Source: Lytechinus pictus
Taxonomy: Eukaryota
Assembly (NCBI RefSeq): GCF_037042905.1
Contig: NC_087247.1
Location: 63,187,097 to 63,251,096 of the forward strand
Direction of reading: 5' to 3'
Length of the DNA: 64,000 bases
In this document: in pieces, positions 14,754 to 46,345 of the stretch
Position numbering within the stretch: the first letter of the stretch is position 1
Layout: the number at the start of each line of letters is the position of its first letter
Notes under the pieces: generated by a model
Database searches by the model: none
What the model saw: only the letters and a program-made list of their open reading frames with translations
What the model was told of the DNA's origin: nothing
Translations under genes and position numbers: made by a program

Positions 14754-14926
14754 GAAAAGAGATGGTGGATTATGTGGCTGATTACTTATCAACAATTCGT
14801 TCCCGCCGAACATTACCAGACGTCCAACCTGGATACCTTAAACACCTCATACCAGACCATGCCCCTATACATGGGGATAAGTGGGAAGATATCATGGCTG
14901 ATATTGAAAGGGCCATCATGCCAGGG
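14754..14926 (+). CDS. HDC: Histidine decarboxylase-like (PLP-dependent group II decarboxylase) coding exon: (G/R)KEMVDYVADYLSTIRSRRTLPDVQPGYLKHLIPDHAPIHGDKWEDIMADIERAIMPG
   Basis: Near-identity to the conserved N-terminal block of HDC/DDC (RG+EMVDY..YL..+R.V.PDVQPGYL...P..AP...D....I..D+E..IMPG). The acceptor ttttaag sits at 14752-53 with an in-frame TAA just upstream, and the donor gtaagt is at 14927. The exon starts in phase 1, so at least one more 5-prime exon carrying the first base (and probably the start codon) must lie upstream and was not found. Confidence 0.85.
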
Positions 14927-16929
14927 GTAAGTCCATTACCGGTTAAGCCTGATTTTGTTGACGAGATGTGTTTATAAAATTTAATTTGAAGATTGGAAGG
15001 AATACTGAGGTATCGAATTGAATTATATTTATCATCGTTAAATTGATCTTTTGCGAGTTTTGCTAAATTGTAAATACTTCCGTAGTAGCAATGAAGAACG
15101 CTGTATTAAGAAAAAAACATATTTGGACTAATGATAACTAAAGACGTGGCGTTTAAATCATTATTCAGTAATGATATCTGTTTGTTATCTACGTGATGTC
15201 ATTAAAGTTCGGTAATTTTTTGTAGATATGTTCTGTTATAATCGAATAAAAAAGTCAGTGCATCTGAACTACTAATGAAACTCATGAAAAAGGCTAACGT
15301 TAATTAAGAAATTACAACCAAAAAGATGTAAGTGTGCATATTGATTTAAAAGGGAAAAAGAAGAAAGACTGAACATTGCAATATTTCTTTCAGTTGTCAT
15401 TGGAAAGGAAATGGTGAAGCCATCGCCTTAAATGACAAGCTATTGCTGAGTGCTCCTGCCAATTACCCTCCTCATATTGCACGCTTTCGGGAGCAAGATG
15501 ACTTCTCTCGATGTCATCAAATTTCATTTAAGTGAAATACCCTATTCACTGGGATTATGGAGTCTCTATACTTCCGTATCTAAGCAAAATTGGAATACGA
15601 TATGACGTCATTTTTTTACACAACATACATTGTATATCGTGGAATGTGTCTCGTTGCAATATAGAATTATATCAAAGTGAAAGAGAATTTTAAAAGTACG
15701 CGCGATTTTCTTTGATTAAGTGGATAGCATATAATTTAAAGTAAGAAAAACATTTTCTACACGGCCGTATTTCAGAAGCTTCGTATAGCGTTTTAAAACG
15801 CATTGAGTTTTCACCACATTTTCTATGAAGCCTAAAAATACTTTTCGAGAGTTAGTTCCAAATATTGTATTCCTCAGCAAAACTGCAAAAGGTGACCTTA
15901 TCATCTTGGTATAGTTGTGCATTTGTGAAATCAATCATATCCATCTCCTCAATGATGTCATAGTAAACCATCAATGTCTGGCATTTTCCCAGCCATTATA
16001 AATTGGAACTAAATCCGATACTGCTTTCCTTCAAATAACTTTCCCTTTCTCATACTCAACATTGAATCTCCAAAAAGTATTCATCCTGTTTTAAAGTTCA
16101 ACGTCATGATGCTTCATCGCTCTAAATCATATTTCAATTTTGAGAGGAACATGAATATATTCCTCTTCAATCCAGTCAATACATTCGGGGATGACGTCAT
16201 TATGATAAAATCTATATAAATTTCTATTTAAGCTATAATAGGTTTATTCTCAGCAGTAAACGGTTATTCATTAGACTCAAATGCTCCCTCGACGTTTCCT
16301 AAATGAGAATAATTATGATTTCCATGGGCTCTAAAAATAATGCTTTAAAGATTTCCGCTCTCTTGATTTTGTTCATTATGATCTCCATTTCCGAAAATAC
16401 CCCCATTTTTATCATGTCTGCGGTACTTAATCATGGCGATGTTGTATATTGCACTAGATAAATCATGCAACTTCATTTATTTCACTTTATTCATACACGC
16501 AAACGAAATGTGAAGATGATTTGTTAAAACAATAATGATACACATTGTTAGGAAATATAATGGGTTGTTATTGCTGTGTGGAGGATGTGAAATCATATGG
16601 TTTCATTTTCGAAATACATTTCAAATTTTCTGCAAAGGCTTCTATATACTCAATATAAATTCTGTAATGCACATTAATGGTGGCATTCATAGTAAACGAC
16701 GCCGTAGGGTCAAACTAACAATAATTCCGAAGGCCTCTCACTAGTATATCAATTATTGTACATATTCAAAATTTTAAATAATTATGATTATTATGATACC
16801 TTCGCTGATTGAATACAGGTGTGTTCATAATAGAGTTAATTGATAACAGTTTAACCTCAATCATTTCTTTTCACAGGTCAATGCATACTAAGTTCTTTTG
16901 ATTTCATCCCAAATGATATTTTCATGCAG

Positions 16930-17043
16930 ATTACTCACTGGCAGAGCCCTCATATGCATGCATACTTCCCTGCACTCACATCATATCCGTCAATGCTTGG
17001 AGACATGTTGGCTGATGGTATCAGCTGCTTAGGGTTTACATGG
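16930..17043 (+). CDS. HDC: HDC exon: [38 protein letters not shown]
   Basis: Matches the HDC-specific block [37 protein letters not shown]; the DDC version differs (SPYFFAYFPTASSYPAML). Acceptor ttcatgcag, donor gtaaga. The 114-bp length is in phase with the previous exon. Confidence 0.9.
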
Positions 17044-18646
17044 GTAAGATATCTTTGCTAATACTTTTTAAACCCCTTTGTCACTTAACTTTGCTCTGTC
17101 TTATTTAACAGTAGACATATTTCTAATTCCATTTCTCCCATCACTTGGAACTATACGACTTATTTTTACTGCACTAGATTCAGTAACTTATGGAATTTCA
17201 TTCAAGTATGGTTTTATAACGTCCAGCTTATAAAGTAAGATGATACTGTATGTATATCAATAATATAAGTTGTTTTAGGCGATATGTGTATGAAATGTAT
17301 AGTCAGATAAAATTAGATTAATTACCAAAATCGTGAAATTGAGATTCCCTTCCATTCTACTTACAACGCAATTTTCGATTCAAGGCTATATATACAACAT
17401 TACTGCACAGACACTTTGAACCTGTCTACCGTTTCATTCCCAATGTCATTCCTAGGGGTATTATTCTAACAAAAACCTACAAAGAGTAATTACTACAAGG
17501 CATATCTTACCAATACAAAAACTAGATCATGTTTAGAGGTGTATTAAATTATCACACTCGGACACCATTACCCTCATATTTCCGCGTTACGTGGTAGGCC
17601 TAATTATACAATATTACTTAAATCTGAAATAAGATGGCACCACGACACCCCATCATAAATTCTGAGAATAAAGATGCAGGTGTTTTACGATCAGATCTCC
17701 TGTTAGATTCACTATAAACTGAGATGATCTGTGTGGGGCCAGGGTTGTCTATCACCTTGTTTTCAATGCCAATTACAGTTCAATGAGTTTCCGACGTCAA
17801 GATGGATGGATGGGACTTACTGATAGGATAAACTTGATGAATAACTAATGAATCGTAGTGTAATAAATCGCCTGTTGCGATATTTAGCAGCACTGATAGT
17901 GCCCTTGATAATTATACGTGTCACTCACTCATAAACACCTTTCCTATCAAATTCTTAAACACAAGTTCTTAGTTACTATATTAAGCTTAAATCTTTAGCC
18001 TTTAAATGTAATGAAGCAGGTTAAAAGTTCCTGATATGAATAACTTATTTTGCGACAAAAAATTTGAGGAAGTACATTTCATTTCACGAACAAAAAAATA
18101 CAACTGACTTTTATCAGACATCTTTATCCTGAATACACTGAGAAATGGAATGAGTAGTAATGCAGCCAAAATAGGGGTTTTAGGAATATCCTGCATAATC
18201 AAATTTTGAATAATCCGAACATGCCGAATGCAGTAATGATTGGGACCATTTGTAAGTCCCGGTCTATACAAATGTTTCGTTCACGTCCAAAGCTTGAATG
18301 GGTGCATTTAACAGCATTTAAGAAGCATTTTTCTTCACATTCCTTCAATATCCCATCAACGTTTAAATTGTATTTGAAGAATTTGAATTACTCCGAATGA
18401 AGCAAGCATAATATAGAGAACACTTATGGGAGGCGTTGTGTCATCATCAGAGATTATGTTTGTGTATGATAGCATGTCAAGTTTTGAAGGTAAAATATGT
18501 GTTACGTTTATACAGCGGGCAATACAAAAAAAAACACCACAGAATAAAAAGCTAATGCTATTACTTTTATTTGTTCAACTAGCCTTCAATTTTGTTTGCA
18601 GTACATGAGTTTTGAGTTTCACTGTTTTCTTTCCCTGTACTTGTAG

Positions 18647-18698
18647 GCATCTAGTCCCGCGTGTACCGAGCTGGAAAAAATCGTGATGGACTGGCTGG
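18647..18698 (+). CDS. HDC: HDC exon: ASSPACTELEKIVMDWLG(split codon)
   Basis: Matches ASSPACTELE..VMDWL. Acceptor cttgtag, donor gtaagt. The exon ends in phase 1. Confidence 0.9.
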
Positions 18699-21600
18699 GT
18701 AAGTTTAGATTTGTAGATCAGTTTCAGAACCCGAGATTCTTTAGATAAATAGATGACATCAATAAATCTCGATCACTTCTGTTATGGTTTTATTGCCTAC
18801 AGAGAAATTGATATGAACAAAAGATTTTGGATGTTTTAAAATAATATATAAAGAACCATGGATTGCGTGGAATCATCAAAATTTTATGAAACAGCACCCA
18901 GGGCTGTTTTATTGGCCATATGAAGGAAAGGAATATGAAGAATAGAATACAACGATCCCCTTCAGTTTGCACTTTCATGTATGGCGATGGTTAAAGGTAT
19001 TTTGTTTTTCCTTATTTATTCGGAGCAGACATCCATTAGTGGATGGGGTCAAGTAATGTTTTATAAAATAAATTTTCTCCAATTTTACCTTCATTCCATA
19101 CAGGAAAATTGGTAGTCTACTGACTTGCAACATAATGGGGGTGATAATCATTGACCTCTAAAAGTACCTTCGAAATGGTCATATAAGACAAATTAAAATC
19201 AGTCATACGCATTAATTTAAGAGCGCTTCAAACGATGATGCTGAACATGCGTTTTATTGTTCACTGAACATTCCTTAACATTTCATTTCAATTTTCATCT
19301 ATGCGTCTTTAATTTGTCATGTAGCTTGTAACTGAGTGAAATTTACAAATTAACGATACATTTCTTATAGAAAAATGTACTTAAATTTGTATAATTGAAA
19401 CACCACGAGTCTAAAAAAATATTTGTGTTGATGACAATGAATCTGACATGTTAAGAAATGTTCATTTAACAACATTCATGCGCCTAACTAATTCTAAATT
19501 GTCAAATAAGCAAATTTTTCGAGAAATTGATTTTAGAGTGATAAGATGCAAATGAAATGCCACAAATTCAAGCAATGTTTACTACTTATATCTCGGATAT
19601 ATCTATGTCATGAAGTAGAGCAGGCATAAACCTGAATACTGCCAATATAAAACAATTTGGATGTGTATGCGCGCGTATTCAGGATTAAAAGCGTTTGTGA
19701 GGGTGTGGGTGTGTATATGGGGGTGGGTATGCGTGTCTCTTTATGACCCTTTCGCTTCGCTTCAACTGCCTCCATCCCTCGAGGGCCTTGATTGAAAAAA
19801 TGGCGGTTTTGAGCCGAATTTGATTCTATCACCAGTCAAGTATGAAATAACTTGTGGGGATCGCAATGCATCATGGGTGAAGATGAAGGATGTGTTTGTG
19901 GAATGATGGACGGTCTACGGGAATCACGTGACATGTGAAAACAAGAATGTAATTAGCTGGCCATTACTGTTCAAAAGGAAGAAAATAAAGATCGAGAATG
20001 TTAAGTGATTCGTAATGAACACGTCTATGTGATTGATAAGAAATCAAATGTATCAAGATAGTCTGAAGGTACACGATTGCATATTTCGTAGAATAATTGT
20101 TTTCCGCATTTTACTAAATTTTTCTACTGATGCCATGATTTTATTGCAGAGAATCCATTGTCAGCAAACTTCGTCCTGTGTTCTGAACATCAAAATCAAT
20201 AAACATACCTTATTTATTAATATATCTTCCAAAAATTGGAAATAATATTGCAACACTAAGTTGCACTTAGATGTGGAAGAGAACAGAACTTCTTACCACA
20301 AGTTTCATTCTGCTATTGTATCTAGACTGATCAATATTGTTGAATATCTCGCAAGCAATACTTGTAGGAATTTCAATTCAGGGAAGGACAGATAAAAAAA
20401 GCATAGACAGGCCTAGAACCATATTTTGTCAACAAAAAACAAATATTAATCTTGGGAGACTGTATTCACACACTTTCTGCTTGATTTCATACCCACCTGC
20501 TCCTCTGAAGTAAATGAGACATCTCAGTCATTCCTTCATTTCACGATGCATACAATATACATAATCATTATGCCAAATTACACATAATGTATCACATGGT
20601 TATTTGCTTCAGCATGACAGAAGCTTCGGAAAAAGATAACGGAATGTCTTTTCATGTACTATCTCTGCCCATTATAAAAAGTTTTATGTCTACAAAACAA
20701 TCATGGACTGTTCTTCAGGGAAATGGGGGAGGGGGGTCTTGGTCTATTTTTTTAGTAGCTCAAAATGATATTTGTTATAATTGTGTGTGTGTTTTTTTCT
20801 TCAAAATTATATAGATTTTAATTGTATAAGCTGACGAGGGTCACGGTCAAAATGTGTCCAGCAATCCTGTCAAAGACCCCAAAACAGATACTTTACCGTC
20901 GAATCTGATTTTGAATAATAAAGTAGGTTTAAACTATTGAAAATGACATCCAAATCCTAAACAAAATAGAAAAATGACAAAGTTTCCAAATGAATGCGAT
21001 GATGATAATAACTATTTTTTTAAATGTTCATTTCCTTACTGCGTTTACATTTTATACTTGAAGCACTGATTTTTTTTGTCTCAAGGATAGGGTAAAATCA
21101 GCGTCACAGTAATTTATTTTTATGCAAGTTAGCTAGAGAGAGAGCGAGAGAGGTGCGGGGAGATTTTTATGTTTATCTATCGACAATGGAGTATTTCACA
21201 TTTCGTGAATAAAATGCACCATCAGATCACGTAGTCTCACTTATTTGCATACAATAAAACAAAGCAAGATTCCTTAATGTATAACATATTCTTTTATCGG
21301 ATTTTGATTTAAATATTCTGTTTATTCTCAATTAATTCAAACAAACCGCCTCACGGTCTAACACCCCTTTCTTGCGTCCTTTCTTCCCATGTACCTCTAT
21401 AAACCATTTCGTAGTTATAATAATAATAATATGTTTTATTTGTATAGCCATTTCGTATAGTTCCATCTGCGCATGATAAGAATATTCTGCGCATGATCAG
21501 AAGAAGGTCATTTGGTACTAAAGTGGCATGGTGGTTTAATGTTTATTGAGATAAGCACCACCTTTGATGTCTTGATTATTAATTTATTCTTTTGAATTGT

Positions 21601-22992
21601 GTTTTTCATTAGATCCACAAAAAACAACAACAATAGTTCCACTAGCGACTGGTATTTGGCCAAGTATATTGTTATAACAACATGCTTATGCATTCAAAGT
21701 AGAAATGCAATAAATACCTTCATAGAGAGTTTATTGGTGTGCTATTCGATTTCTTCATCCTGCTATGTAAGACATGCTTACATAATATCTTGCTTTAAGT
21801 CTGCCTATCATCATGATAAAAATGAAAGGTAATTTGACCAAATATGCCCGTGAAGTAACGACGAAATGGTATATTACAGAATGCATTTCATCTATTTTGG
21901 TGACAAGTTTTATTTGTGTGTAACTCAGTGAATATGTTAATATTCGATAAGATATCTAAAAAAAAACACAATGAAGCACACACAACAAAGAGAATCCCAT
22001 TTTCTTTATTCCTGAGTATGGGTGTGTGTGTGCGCGTATGTGGGTTTGTATTTGTATGAGTGGTTTGGATAATGAGGAGAATTCTTGATATGCATAAATC
22101 AAGCACTTGTGAAATAAAAATATGATAGTCGGCTCGATATGCTGCCTCAGGGAGAAAATTTAGCAACTTTCATTACCACACTTATCTCTTGATTTTAATT
22201 TTATATTTCGAAAAGAAGTCTTTCATCACCGTTCAGTAAAGATCAAATGATTCTCATATTTCCATTTAGATGCCCAAATATAACTCCTAGGGAGGTTGAA
22301 TCATTTTTACCCGCAAACAAATTAACAAATTTGCCCTTTCTACTCGTTCCGCTGAGATCGTTTAAGTGAGGCTCCATGCGGAAAGATAATATAGATCAAA
22401 CGACGTGGTTGTGAAGACAGCTTACGAATATATACACTTTGACACAATTCAGAAAACTAGATATGTTTGATAATATCATTGACCCGGCGTTGCTCAATAT
22501 CACACGGCATTGTTTTCACTATACGAGGAATGCAATTTTTCAAATTCATAATATTTAATGTTTTCTTATGAATCTTGTGAGGAAGAATACTTTTGAAGAT
22601 ACAGACCCTTGGCGAATTTGTCCGGGAGGTACTCTTTCCTTTGTAGTCGTTAATTTGATATCGATTTACGGCTGAGGAACAATTTCCGTCAATAAATAAA
22701 GCATACTCCTATTTTTGGAGAGAGCGCAGCTGAAACTGGGCAGGTCCCGCTAGGAATAGGGTCGGCAAGATAATGGGTGAAACGTGGCCATTAAATGAGA
22801 AAGAAGGATTCGGCTGTTCTTAAATATAAACATTGCTCTCAATGGTTCTCCTCTCTTCTTATTTCACTTCTGAATGGAATCAAATATTATCAATGACATG
22901 AAGGTCTATATTAATTTATTTCCAAAGACTTTACAATGAATAAACCATCCGTATTCAAACATTTGAATTTTTATTTAAAAAGTTTATAGAAA

Positions 22993-23937
22993 TCGAGGCA
23001 CTAACCCTTAAAAAGGCTGGGGATTCCACCCCTCGAATTTTTTTTCGTAATAAACACGGAAAGCTGGTGCCGCGCGTCGTTCCTTGACTTGCTTTTTTCT
23101 TTCAAGTCTCGCGCAAATTTTGAGACCGAATTTGCGACCCTCGCGTTCTGACGTTACCCAACATCTATAGTAAGTCTATGTCAGACCAGAAATTGCACAA
23201 AAAATGTGATTCCATGTACAAATCCAAACTGTGTTTCTAAAATTTCTAAAAGTATCATTATTTTTACTATAAACTTATTGGCCCGGTGGTTTTGAAAACT
23301 GTCCTCTGAATCCACGGTTTATGCAGATTTCCTGTTAAATTACGCTTATTTACCGCTCTTCAAAACAGTGGACTCATGAATGAAATAGCGTACTTAACCA
23401 TGGCAACGGGCGTCATTTTGGCGCACTGTGACAAAAGCGCGCATCAGCGTTGGACATTTCTTTATACGCGGTAAACAGGAAATCTGCATAAACCATTGGT
23501 TCAACCGACGGTTTTCAAAACTACCTTTGTGAATTCGGGCCATTAATTTTGTTTTGTTCATGATCAAAATAAAGTCACTGACAATATCCATGAAAAAAAA
23601 CCCAGAAAAGTCGAAAACAAGGAAATACAGAAGAAAAAAAAAAATGAGTAGAAAATGTGCTACAAATATATATTTTTTGAAGTGCATTATATTTGATCAA
23701 AATGTTACAGTCTGTGAATAGAAAATAATCAGTTCGTGGCACATATCTATATAATTAGACATTTCTTTATTTTACGCATAATAAAATATTAAATATTATT
23801 TCGGAAAAATAACATCGTACACTAGCACTGTGCATATTTCCGTGGCGCTCGCGTGATCGGCGGCCGAGATTTCAGAGGGTGGGTACCCGCCGGTATAGCA
23901 TAGCCAAAAAGACCCAGCCTGAATAGGGTTAAAGAAG
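22993..23937. mobile_element. Non-autonomous TIR element (MITE-like, ~945 bp) with ~20-bp terminal inverted repeats (ttaacccttaaaaaggctggg / cccagcctgaatagggttaa) and an internal long inverted repeat (23281-23337 vs 23470-23540)
   Basis: The terminal and internal inverted repeats were read directly. No transposase ORF is present; ORF 23394-23687 is low complexity. Confidence 0.55.
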
Positions 23938-25269
23938 TATTTTAAATTATAGAAATGGCGGCTCTATACTGTATAACATCTAACATCTATGACATGTTCA
24001 AAAGCATTATTCATTTATTTTTTTATCACTACTTATCTTTGATTTAAAATAGTTTGGTGAAATAACACACTGACACATGTGTACATTTTCTCAAATAAAA
24101 TATCATAATAAGTATATACTTTTTTTCTTATTTGAATTTAGATTTTAGTTAAGTTAAAAGTTGTTTAAAATTTGTAAATATTTCCCTTAGATTGGAAGAG
24201 GCGAACTGACAATCCTGAATGATTCAGACAATCGGAGATTCCCCCCTCCCCTTTAATCTTATAAGTAATAAACAAAAATGAACGAAAAGAATGATATAAA
24301 ATTTTGCTGAGTATCTTATGAACGCCTCACTCATGAGTAGGTTACTCAGTATTAGGTAATATGGATTGGGTAAAACTCGATGATATCAAATAGAATTTAA
24401 CATTTTCTGCAATCTTTCCCGGAAGCATGCTAATTACACATTTTTATTCCAAGGATCAAATAAATACACAACCTTTGTAGAATGTAAAAAGGTTTTTAAT
24501 TTTGTAATGTTTGACGATGAATCATAAATTTATGACATTTCAATGATTATAACAAATATGTATCGTTGGAAAATTCCGTGCATACATTCGCAATTCAATT
24601 ATTTCCTTTAAAGGGCTTTCCCGTCGGCTTTCTGCGGGTAATTTCAGTATACACCTATGAGATTATCAATTCATCGACCTAGGATATGCCTGCTAAAACG
24701 ACACTTTTTATTGATCAAATTAATCACCCGTCATAACTGATCGTAATGAATGGCGAACTGCTACAATAGGAGTAATTCTGCAAAGGTTATGAAATTTCAA
24801 TGGTTGCAGGCAAAGTAAGATATTATTTACAACCTTACCGATTGCGGTTGTCAAGTCGAATCTCTGTTGATTCGTAAATCTTTTTTGCGCGGAAATTTCG
24901 TATTAAATGTGATTAGGGGAACGAGATTATAATTTTCTGTTAATTGCGTTGTATTAGTAGTAGTATGGTAGTTATTCAATCAAGAAACTGGCAAAACAGT
25001 CCAAAGACTGAAAATTCAGTGTACAGTATAAACAAAGGCAAAGTACAATATCATAAAGATGAAATATATGCAGAAAATTACAACCAATCGATTATGATAT
25101 TACACAATCATAAAAAGATATACCAGGAAAAAAAATAATTTAAAAAGTAACATGTTGATCGATGAAGCATGTACAAACGTCAAGAAGTGTGAATGTGTAA
25201 TTCGAACAGAACACAACTCGGGCATTAAATGCTATATTACATGTATAACCATGAAATACGGGAAAATTC

Positions 25270-26110
25270 AACATAAATAAAGAAAAGAAAAAGAAGAGAG
25301 GGAGTGATAGAGAGAGAGAGGAAACCAAGATTACGGGAAACAGTAAATATATGTATAAAAAAAGCAAATGAGAAAGGAAGAGAAAGAAAGAGAGAGAGCA
25401 TGAGATGAATGAGGAAGAGTAGAAAAACGCAAGAGAGTGGGAGGAAAGAGATAGAAAGGAAAGAAAAGATAAAGGAGGGGAAGATGAAAGGAAAAAATTG
25501 AAAAGAAGACCAACAGCAAGAGGAGAATAAGAAAAACAGGAGGAAAGTATGGACGCAAAGCTGGGTTTAACCTTGTAAAAAAATAGCAGTAACTGATAAA
25601 AATTTTCCAAGAATATAAATCAACGAAGAGAATAAAAAGGTGAGATGCGTGGTCGATGAGATAATAGCAAAAAAGATAGGCATTGGCACGAATTGTCGGC
25701 TTCCAATTCCAAACCACATTATTGTGTATAGTTCTACCCAATCAGTCCTTATCTACCCACGTTCCAATCACGTTAATATTACAACCTTCATTTTTTATGT
25801 TACGTATTAATGTTTTATCAGAAGATAATGTACCATGTTTCGAAAAGGACTTGAAAATCATCACTGTGACGTAAAACATTAAATTTACTTTGCACCGTTA
25901 AAAGGGAGAGGCATAGAGCAGTGGATTCCACTTATAGCTCATTTCCCACTAATAATGATTCTTTCCTATATTGGAAGATACATTCAGGACAGATTGAAAA
26001 GGGGAGAGGAATGAGGGGACAAGAGAGTCAGAAAGATAGATAGAAGAGAGAGAGAGAGAGAGAGAGAAGGGGGATCGAGGGGTTGGCGAGCAGAGATGGA
26101 GAGGGAGTCT
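25270..26110. repeat. Purine-rich (GA/GAAA/GAGA) low-complexity blocks (25270-25560 and 25990-26110)
   Basis: The minus-strand ORFs 25140-25610, 25331-25741 and 25949-26194 translate to S/L/F-rich low-complexity peptides. They are repeat artefacts. Confidence 0.85.
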
Positions 26111-26164
26111 CGGACAGAAACATAAATATACTCTTAAATAGTTGGCCAAAAATACCCAACTTTT

Positions 26165-26350
26165 AACCAACCCTTGACAACATACTGTCCACACAACTAT
26201 TGGTTAAAATCTGCCCAAGTTGGGTAATAAAAACTAATAATTGGGTAATTAATTCGCTGATTTGGATAATAATTGCCCAGAATATATTTATATTTTTATA
26301 CCAACATGTATTATCCAACACAGTGGACAGTATGTTGCCAAACATTTTAG
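26165..26350. mobile_element. Small MITE (~185 bp) with ~25-bp TIRs (gacaacatactgtccacacaactattgg ... ccaacacagtggacagtatgttgccaa)
   Basis: The terminal reverse complements were read directly. The interior is AT-rich and non-coding. Confidence 0.7.
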
Positions 26351-27295
26351 GTGTATAGAGGACAAACACACACCATGGGTACGGAGAAGAGAAATGATGA
26401 ACAGAAAATAATGATAGAAATGAAAAAGCAAAGATGACAAAACGGACAGAAAAAAAATCGAACACTGACAATTTCATTGAAAGCTACATATATTAGGATC
26501 AAGAACTAAATTGCATCCACATGGAGACCTATCGTATTATGCGTAGACTTGTTTGCTTTCAATTATTGTATGGAGGTCTGGACCTTAATTGAAACGTCTA
26601 AACTGAGAAAAGATGAACGTAACAAAAAGTCGATATGATATATCTAAGTATTTCATCCATATACTTTAGAAATGTGAACTAGCTGGGAAATTTGTGATTC
26701 ATAATTCATATCATCTGGGGATTATGACTAAACGGTGCTAAAGAAAATTGAATAGTTGTTCGAAATATTTGTTCACTTAGTGTTGTAAACTATTGTAAAG
26801 TGAACTTTGATATACAAAAAATTGTGACATAACAATGATACCTTTAGAAAAAAATAATTTCATTATACATACATACAGACAAACATACATCAACCCTCTC
26901 TCACATAATACACAGCCAAACGCAATTAAATAATAATACACAGCCAAACGCAATTAAAATAATTAAAATAGTACTGACCTTCGCAGTACAGAATGTATTA
27001 GCTAGTACGTCAAAATCCTATTAAATAATATTTTAATGAAACAAATCTATGAGTTATATCTCATTCATTCATAAATTATTAGGAAAATGACATCATTCTG
27101 AAAAAGGCTCATTGGGAGATAATCCATAGTATTTTCCCTCAGTGGCAGATGGAACTATGATAATTGTATGGAAATTAATAAAATGACCCTCTTGAGAATT
27201 ATATACTAGTGTATTTATTTCTTTTTTTGTTTCTTTTTTTTTATACAAAAATGTACTTTAATATACGGTCACAGACATTTGGAATTTTATAACAT

Positions 27296-27657
27296 GTAAT
27301 AATAATAATAATCCGCTTTTAAATAGCACTTAATACATCGAAACGACGTGTCTAAGCGCTTTACAGATATATTATTACCCCGGTCCTCGGATTCAATCAG
27401 TCATTCCCGCACGCAATATGTGCACATCCTCCACTCCCTGGGGAGTATTCCAGTCAGTCGCCGATGAGGCGCACACAGTACTGGACAAGCTACAATGACT
27501 TTCACATCCTACCGGGTACCCATTTAGCACCTAGGTCGAGAGTGGCAAAATGTGGATTAACGTCTTGCCAAAGGACGCCAGACCGCGGTGGGATTCGAAC
27601 ACACGACCCTCTGTTTACAAGGCGAGAGTCTGAACCACTACACCAAGGCTACTCCAC
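27296..27657 (-). mobile_element. tRNA-derived SINE (~360 bp) with an (ATT)n tail at its 3-prime end (low-coordinate side)
   Basis: The reverse complement of 27581-27657 reads GGAGTAGCCTTGGTGTAGTGGTTCAGACTCTCGCCTTGTAAACAGAGGGTCGTGTGTTCGAATCCCACCGCGGTC, which has a tRNA-like acceptor, box A (TGGTGTAGTGG) and box B (GGTTCGAATCC). The body is tRNA-unrelated and ends in aataataataat (27296-27310 on the plus strand). Confidence 0.8.
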
Positions 27658-28349
27658 TTAACATGTGTATTCTCTATGATCATAACGGCTTTCAAAAAGA
27701 TTAAAACTAAATCGATAACTTGGAATTGTCTCGTAAAAATGCGATTATGTTTGGTATCATCACCCTTTCCGTTACATTTTTAATACTAAAAAAATACTAA
27801 TTACTTGCTTACATTGCACTTAGTGATTCTTTATCAGAAGAAAACAAGTAGGAAACTGCTGGTCTAAAACTGTTTCCTTACTCCATGACATGGTCAGATG
27901 ACGGTAACTCACTACTACCGAAATGTTAAGGAGAGAAATAACATTTAAGGGTACATAATTATTCAAATATCACATGTGAGGTTCGTTATTACCCCCCTTG
28001 TCATGCTTGTTGCGGATGTAAGGACCTACAGTGTTCAAATTTCACAAAATCTTCGTCATCAGTGAAGTGTAACAGGCGACTGACAGTACTCTTGATATAG
28101 AGATGGGTATAGAGAGGCAGGATGGTGGTTAAAAATTGACCGAAAGACTGAGGTTCTTTTTAGAAGAGATCGCGCTGTACAGTATAAACATGTGTAAGTC
28201 TAACTAAGTAAGAAATCTGCACCCATCATTTCATCCTTGAGATTTTTCCTGTAAGGAGACTATTTTCCAAGGAGGTTTTTTTTTTTTTTTTTTTTTTGGG
28301 GGGGGGGGCACATATATATAGACACATGTAGTATAGTCTTGATCATATT

Positions 28350-33437: not shown

Positions 33438-33474
<37 letters not shown>

Positions 33475-33481
33475 GACGGTT
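32336..33481 (+). repeat. Copy 2 of the TIR/tandem-array family: ~6 x ~165-bp tandem units (32340-33300), then the conserved tail (33340-33440) ending in a T41 homopolymer (33441-33481)
   Basis: Same unit and tail (cagcactgctgctatattgaatcgc..atgcaggtgagactgc) as 28350-28990. The array abuts the truncated LINE RT. Confidence 0.75.
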
Positions 33482-35709
33482 CCGAAATAGTTGAGTCGGA
33501 AATGGGTTTCCGGTGTATTATTGCAGAAAAAAATTAATCTTTACAAAAATATATTATACAATGGTCAAGTGAATGAATTTGTAAGTTATCATTGCAGATG
33601 ACCATTCTAAATTTGCAATAATGACGGCCATCTTTAATTTTTCATGGAAAAAAACAACTTTTTATCAATGACACAAGCGTGCCTGTGACAAGAGATTAGC
33701 TCATCTCTTGTCACAGGCACACTATATACCGAATTGCTTCTTCGACTTTACTTGTTGGAATATCATCTATGCCTTGCTCTACCATGTCTACTGCAATAAC
33801 TTAATCGCAGTTCTCAATCAAGGGAAAACTGAACAGTACAATGATTCTTTTCTTTGATTGTAAACTCAGACACCAATAATGTTATAATATTTCGCTATGA
33901 ACGTTTGAATTTTTGATGCATTGCGCTGTTGATATTTATAAAAAGTGAATTTAATTGAATTGGTTTCACAATGATCTAGGACTTTGTTTACAACCACTTT
34001 CTGTTCTTTAGATTTGGAGTGTTGACAAAAATGAGCATACGGCCACAACAAGAAATATTTGTTTGTGTGCTCTTTAAAAAAAACTGTAATGTTAAAAATA
34101 CACCGCCGGTGTTTAAAGAGGGCAATCACACCAATCATTGTACACTAATCGTGTCCCGCAAAAAATATCACTCGCACTTTAGTCGAGTATACATGTAATG
34201 TGAAAATGAATAAATCATATTGTACATATTTTTTGTATTCGTAAATTGCTTTTTTTTATACAACTGGCTTGCATTTCATGCGATATGTTTCATTAAATAC
34301 GGAGCTTTGAGCCTTCTTTATTTCTTTATTGCATTGAATAGAATACGCAGTCCAATCACGTCTTTATTCTGCAACTCTTTCTGCAACAGGCCCCTGCTGG
34401 ATCAGGGGGAAAAATACATGGAGGTTGGCTAGGGCCCTAGGAACGATATTTTAACTGGGGGTGCTGATGTAAATTTGACAAGCAAAAAAAAAAAAAAAAT
34501 GCAGGGGGCATTTCGTGTTACATTTATCACGTTCTCACACCTAATAGAATTGCAGGGGTGCTTTTCTAAAAAAATGTATCTTTATTGACATACGCAGTTT
34601 GTTCTTCATTTAAAACGTTCTTTAATTATCCAGTTTCAGATCGAAATATCAACAATTTTCTGCTCGCGCTTCGCGTTCACATTATCAATGTAGGAAGATA
34701 CCCAATTACTCATCCTTTTCCTGATTTACAAAACACACACATTATATATATATATATATATATATATTGGAAAATTCAATTGTGTCTCCCCCACCTTTGA
34801 GGAGAGATTTCCGTCAATGCAGTCAACTCACCGCATTTCCCAAAATTATAAACAGGCATATTTCTCTCATTTTTTTCTCCTCACGTTCCTGTTCTACCCT
34901 GTTTTCTTCTTCTTCTTCACTTATTTCTCTCGCCGGGCGTGATTATAGCATCGTTTTCCATAAGGTGGATAGAGCTACAACTCGCTCTTTCCAGCCCTCC
35001 CCCCAAAAAAAGTACTCCACAAGGTCCAAAGGTCAAGCACGCACAAAGTTACACTTTTTTGTCTATTGTGTAATAACAAAAATTAACAACAAAAACAAAC
35101 TGAAGAAGTCTAAAAGATTATTAGGTTTCTGTTATGCAGATTAAAATAATAAAAACACATTTTTAGAGAACAGTAAAACGAAAAATAAAAAACTTTTTGG
35201 TTTTTTTCTTCAAATGGTTACATAATGATCGTTGTTTTTTCTGTGTAAAGTCTCAAAATCATAATCAGTTTTCACACAATATTTTGTTTTTGCTTTTTCT
35301 GTTTAAAAATCAGAAAATGAATTATCTGAGAGTACCTTGATTCAAACATTACATTCTGTGTAAGGAAGCAGGAACTGAGTAGTTTGTAAGGGCTCGAACT
35401 GGTGGTGTACTTTTTGTAGTCTGATTGCGACATATTGCCATTAATATATCTTATTTAGTAAAATTCATAAAGTTTGCATCATGTGGTTAAAAACATGCAG
35501 TTTTTTTGTGTATTTGTTTTAATATCTTTATCATTGTACTGTTTCATTATGCAGCTGATTTGATTGGTCTTCCAAGTATTTTCACCCACCGTGACACAAC
35601 AAGCACTGGAGGTGGCGTGCTCCAGGTAGGACAAACACGATTTCAATAACTAGGATTGTAAATGTTTGCAATACCAGGATGGTGTTTCGTAAAGCTGTTC
35701 ATAAAGTTA

Positions 35710-35768
35710 GGCACGACTTTCGGCACGACTTTCGGCACGACTTTCGGCACGACTTTCGGCACGACTGG
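35710..35768 (+). repeat. (ggcacgactttc)x4.9 12-bp tandem repeat
   Basis: Direct reading. Confidence 0.95.
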
Positions 35769-36289
35769 AACATGTTCTCATTTGCTAGTCAGTAACATAT
35801 AGGGATATACCATTTAGCACAAGAAACTAGTCGAAGGTTAAGTCATTCGTAACTTAGAAACATATTTCTAAAACACCTAACTGATTATCTAAAGTTTCGA
35901 CATTCAGACTAGGAAATATTAAATGTGCAACACATAACCATGATAACTGTGACTAAAAGCAGGTGTCTATAAAATCTGCAACCCTGGCTTTGGTGAGATA
36001 CTGTATCCGGTTTATTAACGTATTTTGTATCCTTTAAGGAATGATATCAATAACTATATACCTTCAGCCCTTGACCCTTGAAGGAAATTAAATATTTTAT
36101 GTTTCCGATTGGAACTTTTGTATTTAGCAAGATAGGGGCAAATTCACCGTTGGCAGGAATGAAATAATTATATACGAAAGATTATTTAAAAGAAAAAAAA
36201 AACATTCGTCACCATTGTTCCAAGTACTATCCAAAATATTAGCACAAAAAGTCATTGTATGAACGATAAAAGCATATACTAACATTGGC

Positions 36290-36530
36290 GGCGGAATGTA
36301 AAAAATTTAGGGGGGGTCCACCTGAAATTTTGGGATGGACAAAAATTTGACAAGCAAAAAAAAAAAAAAAGTTATCAACCAAAATTTTAGGGGGGGACCA
36401 ACATTTTTTTAAGGGGGGTCCACCTGAAATTAGAGGGGACGCAGTAAATAAAATTGACAAGCAAAAAAAAAAAAGGTTCTCAACTTAAAATTTAGGGGGG
36501 GGGGCGTCCCCCCCCCCCCGCTTCCGCCGC
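36290..36530 (+). repeat. Tandem/dispersed ttagggggggtccacctgaaatt ... tttgacaagcA(n) modules ending in a G10/C12 homopolymer pair
   Basis: Three copies of tagggggg(g)(t/a)cca..., two copies of aatttgacaagcaaaaaaaaaaaa, then ggggggggggcgtccccccccccccg. Confidence 0.7.
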
Positions 36531-37246
36531 CTATGTATACTAAACGATCAGTATCGACCGTACAGAAACGCTGTTAGCGTAACATTTTGCTAACACTGCG
36601 CTAACAAAGGGCCCGGTTACAATCGTTAATCTCGTCGCGATGGCTAATGTCAAAGTGCATTATTTACATATGGGATCAACGCTTGACATCACAATCTGTA
36701 TATCATTATTCATAAACAAATCAGCTACTAACAACATGGGTAGAATGATCGCACAGAAGGCACAGTTAGCGCGCCGTTAGGCGCGAGTGTTGTTAGGGGA
36801 TTTGAATATCTATAGCCTAATTTGTGCATAGTGATCTACATTTAACTTAAGATTTAGTTATGATTATTTGCACATCCTACAAGTTTGAAATCTTGTCTAG
36901 GAAAGGGTAAATGAATGTAATTTATTATTACATAGGCCTAAAAACATTTCCTTATTATTACATTTTAAACATAAAATGAAAGCAAGTAGTAAATATACAT
37001 TTACTAATTTAATTTTTTTTAAATGCTCTTCACAGACTTCACTCACCATGCTCATGATAGAGTATTTGTCAATGATGATTATCATGCGATAAATTTCATC
37101 AGCTATTGTTCTTCTTTCCAATGTAGGGTCTATTCTTAAAAATGTATTCAAACACTTAAAATACGATATATCTTGGAAGAAGAAAAAATCTTGATGAAAA
37201 GGATCATATCTTGGCATTAATCAACATCCCCGCTATATACCGATTC

Positions 37247-37790
37247 TTAAAGGGGTACTCCAGGCTGAAGAAAATAATACGGTATTAACAGTAAAGTGAG
37301 ACAAACAAGACACTGACAAATTTATAAAAATTGAAAATGAATACAAAAAAACATGCTATCTTAAAATTTTGCATTAGGCACTATTCGGTGAAATTTATAT
37401 TCATGTCTTTAGGAATATGCAATGAGGGTCTGTTGTATCATACAAAATTAGATTTATTTAAATTTTGCCCACCCAGAATATTGCTTCAAAGATCATCACT
37501 TTGTTACTCGGGTGACATACACACATTAGAGACAATTACGAGTTCATTTCAATAAAATCAGAAAAGGGGAAAGAGCTAGGGGATATGGCATCATCGTTCC
37601 ATTTATTGCATATTCATGGCCACATGCTGCTCAGTAATATAATTTGCAAAATACAGTGTTAAAATTTTTAATATTCAAGAATTTTGTTATTTTTATCAGA
37701 TTTTGAAGAAATTTTCAGCAATTTGCTCATCTAATTTTACTCCATTTATTCATATATTTTTGTGTGGGCCCGGAATACCCCTTTAATTCG
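37247..37790. mobile_element. MITE (~545 bp) with ~17-bp TIRs ttaaaggggtactccaggctg / gggcccggaatacccctttaa. A second 5-prime TIR copy is at 30317-30344.
   Basis: The terminal inverted repeats were read directly. The interior is AT-rich and non-coding. Confidence 0.6.
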
Positions 37791-38329
37791 GTCGAGGTCT
37801 ATTATAAATTACTTGGTATATGAAAGGGAGACAAGTTATAAAGGGATATATTATTCACTAACATCGTCACTTTTGGTGCCCTTGGCACTGTTAGCGATTT
37901 GTATTAACATTAGCGCCACTGTTAGATTCTGCTGGGCTTTTTATTGTTAGATTATTAGGAATTCGGCTAAGCTTCTGTGGGTTTATCGATACCGATAGTC
38001 CTCCTGTTAGTGCTCTGTTAGTGAAAACTATGCATGTAGGCGGTGGTCGCCCGTGAAAGGTGTGACGGGCCCTACTGTTAGCGTTCTGTTACGCTAACCC
38101 CGACCTTTCGTTGGAGAACGCGAACGCTTATTTGCGACGGTAGTTGATTTTTGAAGAGACTTTTGGGCCCGTCGTCATGGTCGTAAACTCTGTCCTGCAA
38201 TGCAAATTGTGTGACATAAGATTTTTTTTCGTTTCGCATCTAGAACGGAAACATTCAATCTGCGTTTCGTGTGCAAAATTCTGGTTGCTACTATGGTAAC
38301 AACGATATATCCGATTTAGGACGACTTTC

Positions 38330-38680
38330 CAAAGCCACATTTGGTTCCTCCCAGAACTCGAGAGGCCGCCCGGGGGGCCCACTTCCATTGAAGAGTAGAT
38401 ACCAGGCGCGACCACGCGTAAAAAGGGAAAGAGTGGGCAAGTACGTTACGTATAGGCCTATGTAACGTTATAAGGGTGTCAAAAACGATGTTTAAAATAC
38501 TGAAAAGGAGGATATGTTTTAAATACTTGTAGGGTTTCACAAGCTAAATACTTGTTAAGAGATGCATTTTCATAATCTGGAAAAGCCTTGCTTTCCTTGT
38601 TTAGGGTGCTTTTCGAAACCGCATGGTCAGGCCTGGTATCCACTCATCAATGGAAGTGGTCCCCCCGGGAATTCGAATCT
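38330..38680. repeat. Imperfect inverted repeat (ccacttccattgaagagtagataccaggc at 38379-38407 vs gcctggtatccactcatcaatggaagtgg at 38630-38660) inside GC-richer sequence
   Basis: Direct reading; probably a TE remnant. ORFs 38271-38465, 38316-38540 and 38627-38908 overlap it and show no recognisable domains. Confidence 0.5.
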
Positions 38681-40328
38681 AATCCCCATTTCTGGGGAAA
38701 GTAAAACATAATGCCCATTACATTGTGCTAGAGGCATATTGTTTGTGAAGTAGTAAACAAAAGAAAAAAATCCGGCTGGTACGTGTTCACACGTACGTAT
38801 ACATGCTGTGTACATAATCAACGCATGCGAAATGGTTTCGGCTGGAGAGGTGATTTCACCCATGGAATCAATTGCCAGAGATCCACCAATAATCCACATT
38901 AAATGCAATATCGATTAGATGGACTGTAATGATCTATATCTAAGCCTTAATTCAGTAACTTTGTTTGAAAAAACACTTTGTTATCCATGTCATAATCTAT
39001 TGTAGGTCCTGCATTTCGAATATCTCCAGCCATCAGTCGTAATGTACATGCATGTAGGGTGCGGATGTCGCGGGAAAAAAATTTTGCACACGAAAAGCAG
39101 ATCTGTAGGGCCTGTAACCCCCCTGTAACACAAAGCTTAGCATTGTTTGTAGAGCAGTTTTCTACGTTTGATTCTATTGACTATAATGTACAATCAATTT
39201 TAAAAATCAAGTGTATGATTAAGCGTTAACTTTTGTGTTAGGGGACCCTAATATTAGCGTCCGTGAGGATTGCGAAAGGTGGCTAACAACGCTTCTGTGC
39301 GGCCGCCACTGGTGTTTACCCGTCTCTTACAAAATGAATAAGTGAAATAGTTTGGTACATGGTTGGTGATAAAGGATCAAAATAGAGTATGGAGAAACAT
39401 GCTATTTCCGTCAGTATGTGTCTTCCTCAACGTGTATGTACGTGCTATCATATCTGTGGACGTCATTATGCAAATCGGTGTGCAGCCACATGGTCGAAAT
39501 CAGCTGCTTTCCTCACAACCCATTCAATAAACCCAGTCAAAAAAAGGGCTGGCAACAAAACAGGAATGTATTCCTTCCATTCTCTTTCCCGCCTCATCCA
39601 GCGGAAATTAAGCCCGCCTATAGAGGACGCAGGTGAGCTTTCTACGACGTCTCCGGCACAACTCATTAACTCGTCGTCTTCCGCGAGGATACCATCTGAA
39701 GCCTTGGAGTCCTCCAGAGATATTGCTAGGGAATATCTGAAGCCAATACGTTTCTAGAAGACCACTCGGTCGTGTAAATCAACCCAGGTGATTGGTACAG
39801 AACGCCCAAAGGTCGATTTGCCTCGGGCTGGCGTGGATGACGCCTTTAATGATGCACGTTCGATTTAGCACCAGGAATCTATTTCTGTCTCACCACCGTC
39901 TTCATGTACATATATATCATAGAATGTCGGTACTGAAAAGGTTGCTCTTAAAAAGGAATGCTCATTGGTTTAGTGATGACGAAACCCTGACCTGAAATAG
40001 AAACTCGAAGCAATCAGCCACAAAAATAATTTCCTTAAGATCCTCGATTAGAGACATTGGTAATAAAAAAAATGTTTGTGATAAGATGTTAATTGGACCA
40101 TACCGACTTCCTAAAAATATGTTCCGTAGACCTAATCCTATCTCTTAACCGTTCCTCGTTTTATTCCCTTGATTTTCTTGAGAGATCGAAAAGAACATTT
40201 CCACTCCAGATTTTTTTTTGGCCATTCGGTATTCTTTCATCATCAAGTAGTATGCCGCATGTGTAGAAATCACTTTTGATAATTTAATTGACTATCTTAC
40301 ATTCTTAAATTGACTGCTTAAATTCATG

Positions 40329-40503
40329 TTAATGGAAGATTTTACGGTAAACACCATGTATGTAGTCCTGAAAAGGACTGTTTGTTATTTTTTTCTTTAT
40401 TGTATTTTAGCTCTGAAAAGAAAGCTAACATACAATCAAGAAGAAATAACAAATAGTCCTTTTCAGGACTACATACATGATATTTGCCGTAAAAACTTCC
40501 ATT
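40329..40503. mobile_element. Foldback/MITE of ~175 bp with ~58-bp arms (~90% identical as reverse complements), each containing the palindrome agtcctgaaaaggact
   Basis: Left arm 40334-40390, right arm 40443-40503. ORFs 40326-40553 (+) and 40342-40536 (-) are its mirror-image artefacts. It lies 170 bp upstream of the HDC exon at 40675. Confidence 0.8.
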
Positions 40504-40674
40504 ATTCTCTCCACCATGGAAACCTTCAAAGATCATCTAAATTCATGTTATAGACAAATGTTTAACACTGTTTAACATACTTTTGAAATTCAACGTTATT
40601 TCTCTTTGCTTTACTAAAGCATATCATGAGGTATCTTTTAAGTTCCTTGTCAAGTCTGTTTCATTATCTTTCAG

Positions 40675-40815
40675 GGCACCATGAGTGAGGCCACTTTAGT
40701 ATCCATGTTCGCTGCTCGACGAGATGCTATAATCCGACTTCAGGAGAAACCAGAATACCAAGGCATGGAGGAAGCGACGATATGTTCCAAGCTAGTTGCT
40801 TACTGTTCAGATCAG
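40675..40815 (+). CDS. HDC: HDC exon: GTMSEATLVSMFAARRDAIIRLQEKPEYQGMEEATICSKLVAYCSDQ
   Basis: Matches HDC STVSESTLIALLAARKNKI....LVAYASDQ. Acceptor tctttcag, donor gtatta. 141 bp, phase 0. Confidence 0.9.
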
Positions 40816-41728: not shown

Positions 41729-41872
41729 GCTCACTCTTCCTTAGAAAAGAATGCAGTGATAGCCATGGTGAAACTCAGACATGTGCCCTCAGATAAGAAG
41801 CTTAGCCTACGAGGAGAAGCGCTTCGTGCTGCCATTGAACAAGACAGAAATAGAGGACTGGTCCCTTTCTAT
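41729..41872 (+). CDS. HDC: HDC exon: AHSSLEKNAVIAMVKLRHVPSDKKLSLRGEALRAAIEQDRNRGLVPFY
   Basis: Matches [48 protein letters not shown]. Acceptor ttctcag, donor gtaagt. 144 bp. Confidence 0.9.
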
Positions 41873-42525: not shown

Positions 42526-42592
42526 GTATGCGCCACCTTAGGAACTACTGGGGCTTGTGCATTCGACAATCTTGCTGAATTGGGTGAAATAT
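42526..42592 (+). CDS. HDC: HDC exon: [22 protein letters not shown](C split)
   Basis: Matches [23 protein letters not shown]. Acceptor cttcatag, donor gtgagt. 67 bp, ends in phase 1. Confidence 0.9.
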
Positions 42593-42778: not shown

Positions 42779-42941
42779 GTGAAAGGGACAACTTATGGTT
42801 GCATGTAGACGCGGCCTACGCCGGTACAGCATTCTTGTGTCCGGAATTCCGGGGCCATCTCCACGGGGTAGAAAAGGTTCAGTCATTTGCTTTCAACCCG
42901 AGTAAATGGCTGATGGTTCATTTTGACTGCACTGCTATGTG
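42779..42941 (+). CDS. HDC: HDC exon with the PLP-lysine motif: (C)[53 protein letters not shown](W split)
   Basis: Matches [50 protein letters not shown], which contains the catalytic PLP-binding Lys (NPSKW). Acceptor cttaccag, donor gtgagt. 163 bp (2+159+2). Confidence 0.92.
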
Positions 42942-43104
42942 GTGAGTTTCTGACACCATATCTCCCTTTCATTCTTAATCCTCTTCATTGTTCATGCACG
43001 CATTCCTGTATAATTATCATGTACCATGATTGTCATTCGCTCTTTCCACAAGTTGCAAGCGTAACGTATCGTAATGTGTACATTATTTTTTTTTTTTACT
43101 GCAG

Positions 43105-43195
43105 GATACGAGACAGTAAAACACTGGAGAAGGCATTCTGCGTAAAGCCACTATACCTCCGCCATGATAAGCAGGGATCGGCCGTCGATTTTATG
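43105..43195 (+). CDS. HDC: HDC exon: (W)IRDSKTLEKAFCVKPLYLRHDKQGSAVDFM
   Basis: Matches [30 protein letters not shown]. Acceptor tttactgcag preceded by T12, donor gtaatt. 91 bp (1+90). Confidence 0.88.
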
Positions 43196-43574: not shown

Positions 43575-43673
43575 CATTGGCAAATCCCACTGAGTCGACG
43601 CTTCCGCTCCCTGAAGCTCTGGTTTGTTCTACGCTCGTTTGGTGTAAAGAAACTTCAGGAGCATGTCCGTAGG
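43575..43673 (+). CDS. HDC: HDC exon: [33 protein letters not shown]
   Basis: Matches [33 protein letters not shown] almost exactly. Acceptor aatgtgcag, donor gtaagt. 99 bp. Confidence 0.92.
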
Positions 43674-45070: not shown

Positions 45071-45264
45071 GTGAGCCTGATTGGTTCTAATCAAGAAGGT
45101 AACTACATAAAAATTACATTACAATCCGCATTTTTAAAAGATACATATAGTTATAATGAACATTCAATTCGTAAAGAGAATATCATGGGAACACTCATGT
45201 TTGGAAGGAATCCATGTCTGCAGTGTTAATATTTCTACGACTATATTTTGTCATAATTATACAG

Positions 45265-45366
45265 GGTGTTCGACTAGGTCGCTACTTTGAGGAACTAGTT
45301 TCAAACGATGCTGCATTCGAAATTCCAGCCGAGAGAAAACTTGGTTTGATTGTCTTTAGACTGAAG
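45265..45366 (+). CDS. HDC: HDC exon: GVRLGRYFEELVSNDAAFEIPAERKLGLIVFRLK
   Basis: Matches [35 protein letters not shown]. Acceptor aattatacag, donor gtaact. 102 bp. Confidence 0.88.
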
Positions 45367-45907
45367 GTAACTTTGTTTATATGCTAATACAGGGCCCTGG
45401 GAATGATTTTTTAATGGGGGGGGGGGGGGCTTGGTTTAAATTTGACAAGCAAAAACATGAAAATGAAATATAAAAATAAAGTGTTTTTACTACAAAATGA
45501 AGATCATTTTGGTTACATTTTGGCTATAAATCATACCTGCCAGATTTCAGGGGAATGCTGACCATGGAGAACAACACAGGCAGCACCACCAGGGTAAATA
45601 TTTGGGACTCTTCAGCACCCCACTTCCCAGTGCCATGTAATAATAAGAAAAAAATACAGGCCAGTTATAAACAACTGGCACTAAATAATATTGCTGCAAC
45701 ATGAGTCCAGAAATTTACAAGTTTGAAGGACTGCATGGAAGTTGATGTAATATGCATAACAATATACACCCAACGTTTAGTTCAAATTGAATAATTAATT
45801 ATCCCAAGAATGAATTCTTCTTTCATACTTAGACCACAATACAAACCTGCTAGTGAAAAAATTATAAGTGTTCATTAAATTATTTGATCCTTATGACTCT
45901 TAAACAG

Positions 45908-46345
45908 GGACCAAATGAACTCACTCAAGAGCTTTTGAGACGCCTCAATTACTCCGGCAAGATCTATGTTGTACCTGCCTCCATTAAGGGTCTTTACGTC
46001 ATCCGATTCACTGTGACGTCAACAGAGACCACTGAAGATGACATTTTGGAGGATTGGCGTCTCATCCAGTCACTTGCACGTGAAATTTTCGTCTCGACAG
46101 ACATCGTGGCCAACGTCCCCACAAGGATGGCATCATGGCCTGGTGCCCTCAATCTTACCGGTGCACCAAGTGCCATCCACGTCCTTAAGAACCGGAAAGA
46201 AAACTATGGTGAAAACAACAACGAAGATAAGAGAGAAGATGAGAATGAAAGCCTTGCAAAGAAAATAGAAGAAATGAATGGGGAAGAAAGGGAGAATGTG
46301 CCACTCATCTACAAACCAGGCAAGCTTGGAGCTGTGCTTGCATGA
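45908..46345 (+). CDS. HDC: HDC 3-prime coding exon: GPNELTQELLRRLNYSGKIYVVPASIKGLYVIRFTVTSTETTEDDILEDWRLIQSLAREIF...ENVPLIYKPGKLGAVLA*
   Basis: Matches [53 protein letters not shown]. Acceptor ctcttaaacag. The open frame runs to TGA at 46343-46345. An internal potential donor G|gtgaaa at 46208/46209 is discussed in the findings. Confidence 0.85.
   Translation, partial: GPNELTQELLRRLNYSGKIYVVPASIKGLYVIRFTVTSTETTEDDILEDWRLIQSLAREIFVSTDIVANVPTRMASWPGALNLTGAPSAIHVLKNRKENYGENNNEDKREDENESLAKKIEEMNGEERENVPLIYKPGKLGAVLA

Follow-up and report, generated by a model that had tools for sequence, protein, structure and literature searches.

The window analyzed here is a stretch of 64,000 nucleotides (64 kb) from the sea urchin Lytechinus pictus (contig NC_087247.1, forward-strand positions 63,187,097 to 63,251,096), and it almost certainly holds nearly all of an intact single-copy histidine decarboxylase (HDC) gene. 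Its coding sequence is divided among 14 plus-strand exons, of which exons 2-14 are found at 14754-47871 and exon 1 would lie before the window (Table 1). When exons 2-14 were translated from the Met codon at 14762, all 755 of 755 residues were identical to XP_063952115.1 (P0242), the RefSeq protein "histidine decarboxylase-like [Lytechinus pictus]", which is 755 aa long and starts at an internal Met (MVDY). The gene, including exon 5, is already in the public annotation and is an ordinary orthologue. Its product is predicted to be a group II decarboxylase dependent on pyridoxal 5'-phosphate (PLP), with a length of approximately 767 residues (the 755 of the RefSeq entry plus 12 at the N-terminus).

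An earlier note on this DNA had described an HDC-type gene in many GT-AG exons spread over more than 31 kb and had proposed spliced alignment with a metazoan HDC as a check. The borders of its eleven exons were read base by base, and they showed AG acceptors and GT donors, with phases in agreement throughout. A six-frame motif search recovered the peptide blocks HMHAY, LGDMLAD, ASSPACTELE and FNPSKW and a conserved 18-residue block, all on the plus strand, in order and at the places given in that note. When human HDC was used as a tblastn query, colinear plus-strand matches were obtained from 14753 to 46090 and the blocks fell in the expected order; by reading, the stretch of the query that is visible in the PDB alignment agrees with human HDC there. 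The reading frame closes without a stop over 12 exons (13 with the C-terminal tail), and neither a frameshift nor an internal stop was found in 759 codons. The best database matches of the protein are echinoid proteins. In addition, a spliced urchin transcript (L001, Logan SRR6173504) joins exons 2-3-4-5-6 and the following ones in the L. pictus order. Three introns are long and repeat-rich (intron 1, at least 14.75 kb; intron 4, 16.9 kb; intron 5, 5.0 kb) and the other ten are short.

One small exon with a phase-1 acceptor, ending in GGGV(L/I)Q, had been expected at 18.7-40.7 kb and was reported as unaccounted for within a single intron of about 22 kb. The form and the place of this exon were predicted correctly, but it is present, as exon 5 at 35555-35625. 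It was found by tblastn with human HDC as the sole match inside the supposed intron (35548-35625; E-value 0.004), reading ..ADLIGLPSIFTHRDTTSTGGGVLQ. The acceptor is in phase 1, and the leftover G of exon 4 (18698) together with CT gives Ala and restores the conserved DWLA/DLIGLP (a slash marks a splice junction here and below). The exon ends in ...GGGVLQ/gtagga in phase 0, the phase in which the exon at 40675 begins. It is identical to the RefSeq proteins XP_054749749.1 (P0003) and XP_063952115.1, and it matches positions 842-915 of the urchin transcript at 81 % of nucleotides. The same small exon was observed in Diadema setosum (L002 28140-28208), where it sits in an arrangement of 9.4 kb plus 1.7 kb; intron 4 is long there too. 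Because exon 5 lies at this position, the supposed 22 kb intron is in fact two introns, 4 and 5.

Exon 2 starts in phase 1 directly after an in-frame TAA, and an upstream ATG exon encoding M..E(F/Y)R.R had been expected between 5 and 14.7 kb. The orthologues do have such an N-terminus; the location was wrong, as the exon lies before the window. The N-terminus reads MDVEEYRRRGKEMVDY in the urchin transcript and in L. variegatus XP_041458284.1 (MDVEEYRRRG), MDVEEYRKRG in Holothuria and MDALEYQRRG in Acanthaster. In L. variegatus, exon 1 (L003 10001-10028) consists of ATGGATGTTGAGGAATACCGCAGAAGAG followed by gtaagt and codes for MDVEEYRRR, with one further base that opens a Gly codon. Window positions 1-618 align to L003 10278-10895, colinear blocks continue onward to exon 2, and the L. 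variegatus exon 1 lies 277 bp ahead of the site that aligns with window base 1. The L. pictus exon 1 should be located about 250-280 bp ahead of the first window base, where the pattern ATGGATGTTGAGGAATA(C/T)CG.AGAAGAG/gt would be expected. With exon 1 upstream of the window, positions 1-14753 would consist entirely of intron 1. This intron is approximately 15 kb long in L. pictus versus 20.6 kb in L. variegatus; about 7.7 kb of the latter (L003 16163-23846) has no L. pictus counterpart at window 8145, and this insertion or deletion makes up most of the length difference between both species. The first 12 residues, MDVEEYRRRGKE, are probably missing from the RefSeq protein of L. pictus, since about 15 kb separate exon 1 from exon 2; the first nine codons and one base of this stretch would come from the exon outside the window.

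Searches of the window itself agree with this placement. An ATG-anchored BLOSUM scan of the window against MDVEEYRRR gave no convincing site (best score 12), a 30-mer identity scan of both strands of the window gave no site with 20 or more matches out of 30, and blastn-short with the 5' end of the urchin transcript gave only chance-level matches of 10-17 nt in the upstream part. Short ATG open reading frames (ORFs) with a phase-1 GT donor and an aromatic-basic pair yielded 13 unconvincing candidates in the window. MLNYRNDKIF/G (7473-7503) and MAYRAKI/A (1306-1327) were considered as exon 1 and rejected as unconvincing; the L. variegatus alignment places exon 1 off the window. That no exon 1 is found in the window is explained by the window edge, which according to the same alignment falls just downstream of it.

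The identity of the enzyme was weighed against an aromatic L-amino-acid (DOPA) decarboxylase (DDC) or a tyrosine decarboxylase. DDC has the same fold and Pfam family (PF00282, Pyridoxal_deC; in the window protein the match reaches 524 bits with an E-value of 2e-157 and spans all 375 profile positions), and the name 'aromatic-L-amino-acid decarboxylase-like' is automatically given to the echinoderm and hemichordate orthologues in Diadema, Amphiura, Asterias, Ptychodera and Antedon. However, when solved structures were searched, human HDC (4E1O) was the best match (700.6 bits; E-value 1e-209) and led any DDC structure by 135 bits. The fly, pig and human DDC structures scored 550-565 bits (Drosophila 565, pig 563.6), and plant TyDC/TDC at most 400 bits. 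Identity is 62 % to human HDC (over 463 residues) versus 53 % to fly DDC, and at the sites which differ between these two proteins, the urchin residue is that of HDC in 94 cases and that of DDC in 48. The HDC-type residues include NPSKW (in FNPSKW, 42892-42909) rather than NPHKW, PLSRRF, with Ser and not Gly, rather than PLGRRF, and ten residues at the site of DDC HWHSPKFHAY; PLGRRF and NPHKW are both seen in the aligned fly DDC, and neither occurs in the window protein. The best 120 of 7,977 database matches are HDCs from deuterostomes and protostomes of many phyla, and the S. purpuratus orthologue belongs to the HDC clade (PMC3460732). We consider a DDC or tyrosine decarboxylase highly improbable and conclude from these sequence comparisons that the window gene is an HDC and not DDC or TDC, as the earlier note had held; the aromatic decarboxylase names on the echinoderm orthologues are a naming artefact. 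The Schiff-base Lys, the His, the Asp, the mobile-loop Tyr and the specificity Ser all align with their human HDC equivalents. In group II decarboxylases the Lys forms the Schiff base with PLP, whose ring is stacked by the His and has its nitrogen in contact with the Asp. In the human HDC structure paper, Ser354 (Gly in DDC) is said to set the specificity for histidine. Going by its family, the urchin enzyme would be a homodimer carrying PLP as a Schiff base on the Lys of NPSKW, and would convert L-histidine into histamine and CO2 with the aid of the mobile-loop Tyr, while the Ser in PLSRRF would favour histidine over aromatic substrates.

The single gene was also compared with a reading as two separate genes, an N-terminal one of 126-138 aa (exons 1-4 with read-through into intron 4) and one of 651-676 aa expressed from a promoter in intron 4. 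NCBI models are split in this way in L. pictus (XP_054750406.1 and XP_054749749.1) and in L. variegatus (XP_041458284.1 and XP_041458283.1), and alternative 5' exons with an upstream acceptor do map inside intron 4 (Table 1). The shorter L. pictus model (P0121, 126 aa) follows exons 2-4 and then continues past the donor, where intron sequence is read as ...DWLGKFRFVDQFQNPRFFR, and the longer one (P0003, 676 aa) uses the alternative 5' exons and their acceptor before exons 5-14. Neither half, however, would work as an enzyme: conserved segments of the active site and of the dimer lie within the N-terminal 110 residues. The donor at 18698 and the acceptor at 35555 are both in phase 1 and so compatible, the urchin transcript and the Diadema model are continuous across the exon 4-5 junction, and the newer L. 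pictus RefSeq protein XP_063952115.1 merges both halves. Two genes are thus very unlikely. A decayed or mis-assembled HDC pseudogene, the fallback of the earlier note for the case that the missing exon could not be found, has a negligible probability. It is favoured only by the great length and repeat content of the introns and by the lack of exon 1 in the window, and the latter is accounted for by where the window begins. All expected exons are present, the frame is intact with all catalytic residues preserved, the protein is identical to RefSeq, and by reading, near-identity in the exon-encoded stretches holds between the L. pictus models and those of L. variegatus (P0241 and P0243). The reading as one intact HDC gene has weak points of its own: its L. 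pictus exon junctions are read from the genome and the RefSeq models, the enzyme activity is a prediction from sequence, and the true L. pictus N-terminus would have to be taken from orthologues, as exon 1 lies outside the window and the RefSeq protein starts at MVDY.

The split models concern window positions 14762-18760 and 34385-35625, and in L. variegatus the two models are approximately 34 kb apart (L003 and L004 record coordinates). An HDC cut in two at intron 4, as in the older L. pictus models and in those of L. variegatus, could distort expression counts or orthology tables for these two species. In a transcriptome paper on four species, HDC expression was described as 'insignificant or absent' in three urchins other than S. 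purpuratus (PMC12467107).

The end of the gene had been placed at 46345 in the earlier note. In the RefSeq proteins, by contrast, exon 13 stops at 46319 and is joined across a GC-AG intron to exon 14, and the annotated gene runs 1.5 kb further; the TGA at 46343-46345 holds only if the GC donor is unused. Exon 14 is 100 % identical to residues 462-676 of XP_054749749.1, and by reading of the sequences its tail segments EEAEGYGYPFNAFYSF and GRFGALSQTKESTYNGVVNICH are conserved across echinoderm classes. When the GC donor is passed over, L. pictus reads CAG/GCAAGCTTGGAGCTGTGCTTGCATGA, which gives KLGAVLA and a stop. The GC donor and the KLGAVLA-stop tail are also present in L. variegatus (L004 12110), with one synonymous change (CTT to CTG), and Diadema (L002 37748) has the GC donor followed by KLEAVVA and a stop. 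The urchin transcript (2164-2240) reads KLVAVLA and a stop after exon 13. A read-through of seven codons, KL(G/E/V)AV(L/V)A, with the TGA at the matching position was thus observed in all four urchins (window 46319-46365), and conservation of the GC donor and of what follows it is well above what is usual for an intron. A GTGAGA sequence at 46360, shortly after the stop, could serve as a further donor. The transcript is spliced yet keeps the read-through, and therefore encodes the short form; about 34 nt past the stop it enters exon-14-like sequence. In the sea star Acanthaster, the position of intron 13 is not interrupted by an intron.

The conserved GC donor and tail suggest, but do not prove, an echinoid-specific alternative short isoform. 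It is conceivable, though we hold it to be rather doubtful, that echinoids make two HDC forms by a choice at the last intron, with the GC donor at 46319/46320 being either used or skipped. In the long form the weak GC donor would be used, giving an enzyme with the conserved 215-residue tail. In the short form it would be skipped, and KLGAVLA and the stop would close an enzyme of approximately 560 residues. Mammalian HDC is activated by C-terminal proteolytic trimming, and the two-form splicing, if true, would be the counterpart of this step.

Table 1 Features of the L. pictus HDC gene and of repeats in the window (window coordinates; a slash marks a splice junction)
Feature	Position	Strand	Details
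Intron 1, 3' part	1..14753	+	Window 1-618 aligned to L. variegatus L003; no exon-1-like sequence in the window
Exon 2	14754..14926	+	Phase-1 start, ..G/GA AAA GAG ATG.., (G)KEMVDY...IMPG; 100 % identical to XP_054750406.1 (P0121) and P0242
Exon 3	16930..17043	+	Encodes 38 residues; HMHAY at 16951, LGDMLAD at 16996
Exon 4	18647..18698	+	ASSPACTELEKIVMDWL + G, phase-1 end; ASSPACTELE at 18647
Intron 4	18699..35554	+	16,856 nt, repeat-rich; LINE reverse-transcriptase fragment, tandem arrays, MITE-like inverted repeats
Alternative 5' exons of XP_054749749.1, inside intron 4	~34385-34423, plus upstream acceptor 35497	+	
Exon 5	35555..35625	+	71 nt; acceptor ttatgcag/CT, encodes (A)DLIGLPSIFTHRDTTSTGGGVLQ, donor gtagga
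Intron 5	35626..40674	+	5,049 nt
Exon 6	40675..40815	+	Starts in phase 0
Exon 7	41729..41872	+	His matching human His194 at 41732-41734 (SDQAHSS)
Exon 8	42526..42592	+	
Exon 9	42779..42941	+	Asp matching human Asp273 at 42808-42810 (HVDAAY); PLP Lys of NPSKW at 42904-42906
Exon 10	43105..43195	+	Catalytic-loop Tyr matching human Tyr334 at 43154-43156 (KPLYLRH)
Exon 11	43575..43673	+	Ser matching human Ser354 at 43593-43595; conserved 18-residue block from 43575
Exon 12	45265..45366	+	
Exon 13, RefSeq splicing	45908..46319	+	Without use of the GC donor, frame continues to KLGAVLA-TGA, 46343-46345
Intron 13	46320..47224	+	905 nt, GC-AG: cag/GCAAGC ... tatacag/GA
Exon 14, coding part	47225..47871	+	215-residue C-terminal tail RERKTCLKKLMNYRKK...GRFGALSQTKESTYNGVVNICH..., stop TAA 47869-47871
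LINE reverse-transcriptase ORF fragment	31478..32314	-	In intron 4, antisense to the gene; Pfam RVT_1 E-value 1.2e-25
Related tandem arrays, 153-164 nt unit	28438-28789 and 32357-33149		Intron 4; smaller arrays elsewhere
MITE-like inverted-repeat units	23285-23525, 38369-38669, 40330-40504		
Tandem array	63244-63802		186 nt x3, 96 % matches
Tandem array	52850-54016		~164-204 nt x4-5
Tandem array	44624-45076		112 nt x3, inside intron 11
Tandem array	5532-5746		95 nt x2.3
Microsatellite	3247-3399		(CTTT)38

The interval between exons 4 and 6 had been described as filled with transposable elements. A long interspersed element (LINE), tandem arrays and units resembling miniature inverted-repeat transposable elements (MITEs) were indeed found there. 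The short interspersed element (SINE) which had also been named was not verified, as ARAGORN detected no tRNA-like head and no Rfam element was found. The bin at 38000-40000 in intron 5 is the sole 2 kb bin with clearly raised G+C (43.5 % versus about 34 % elsewhere), and it includes the GC-rich inverted-repeat unit at 38369-38669. Positions 649-976 and 44513-44825 of the window are 69 % similar to each other.

Downstream of the gene, an exon for the C-terminal half of a C-type lectin domain was found on the minus strand at 51827-52039 (Pfam Lectin_C; E-value 5.5e-9), and near it, also on the minus strand, there is an ORF with a hydrophobic, transmembrane-like stretch (50688-50948). The gene that follows HDC in L. 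variegatus lies on the opposite strand, and its product of 2258 aa contains a PAN domain and several Lectin_C domains; the lectin-domain exon at 51827-52039 probably belongs to the orthologue of this gene. Two plus-strand ORFs (57400-57678 and 59626-60114) are PIF/Harbinger transposase-like in appearance, and the second of them matched Pfam DDE_Tnp_4 only below threshold (E-value 0.068). A further plus-strand ORF (60890-61216) resembles the C-terminal end of ORF2 of a non-LTR (long terminal repeat) retrotransposon and had no match in Pfam.

Among known systems, XP_063952115.1 represents the same gene, and its start at MVDY makes it 12 residues shorter than the orthologues indicate. DDC (3K40, 1JS3 and 3RBF) has PF00282, the fold type and the PLP chemistry in common with the window protein at approximately 53 % identity, but it has the Gly of PLGRRF, NPHKW and HWHSPKFHAY, whereas the window gene carries the HDC versions of all three. 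Human HDC (4E1O) is closer, with NPSKW and the equivalents of His194, Asp273, Tyr334 and Ser354 present in the urchin protein, and the exon 5 segment ...LGLP....GGGVLQ has the human counterpart which the earlier note had expected. The two proteins differ in the C-terminal tail, which is unrelated in sequence after approximately residue 480; the echinoid tail has its own exon behind the GC-AG intron, and the urchin gene differs from the human one in its long introns 1, 4 and 5, which are filled with repeats. The sea urchin orthologue in a different species, S. purpuratus HDC (XP_789367), is known here through its published description. Sutherby et al. (2012) cloned its full-length cDNA and placed it in a bilaterian HDC clade separate from Ddc, and reported that histamine made by this enzyme modulates metamorphic competence in that species; pharmacology there with alpha-methylhistidine, which inhibits HDC, fits an urchin enzyme that is active (PMC3460732). 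The window gene would thus be the standard enzyme of histamine synthesis, annotated in L. pictus and studied in another urchin, with little importance beyond housekeeping.

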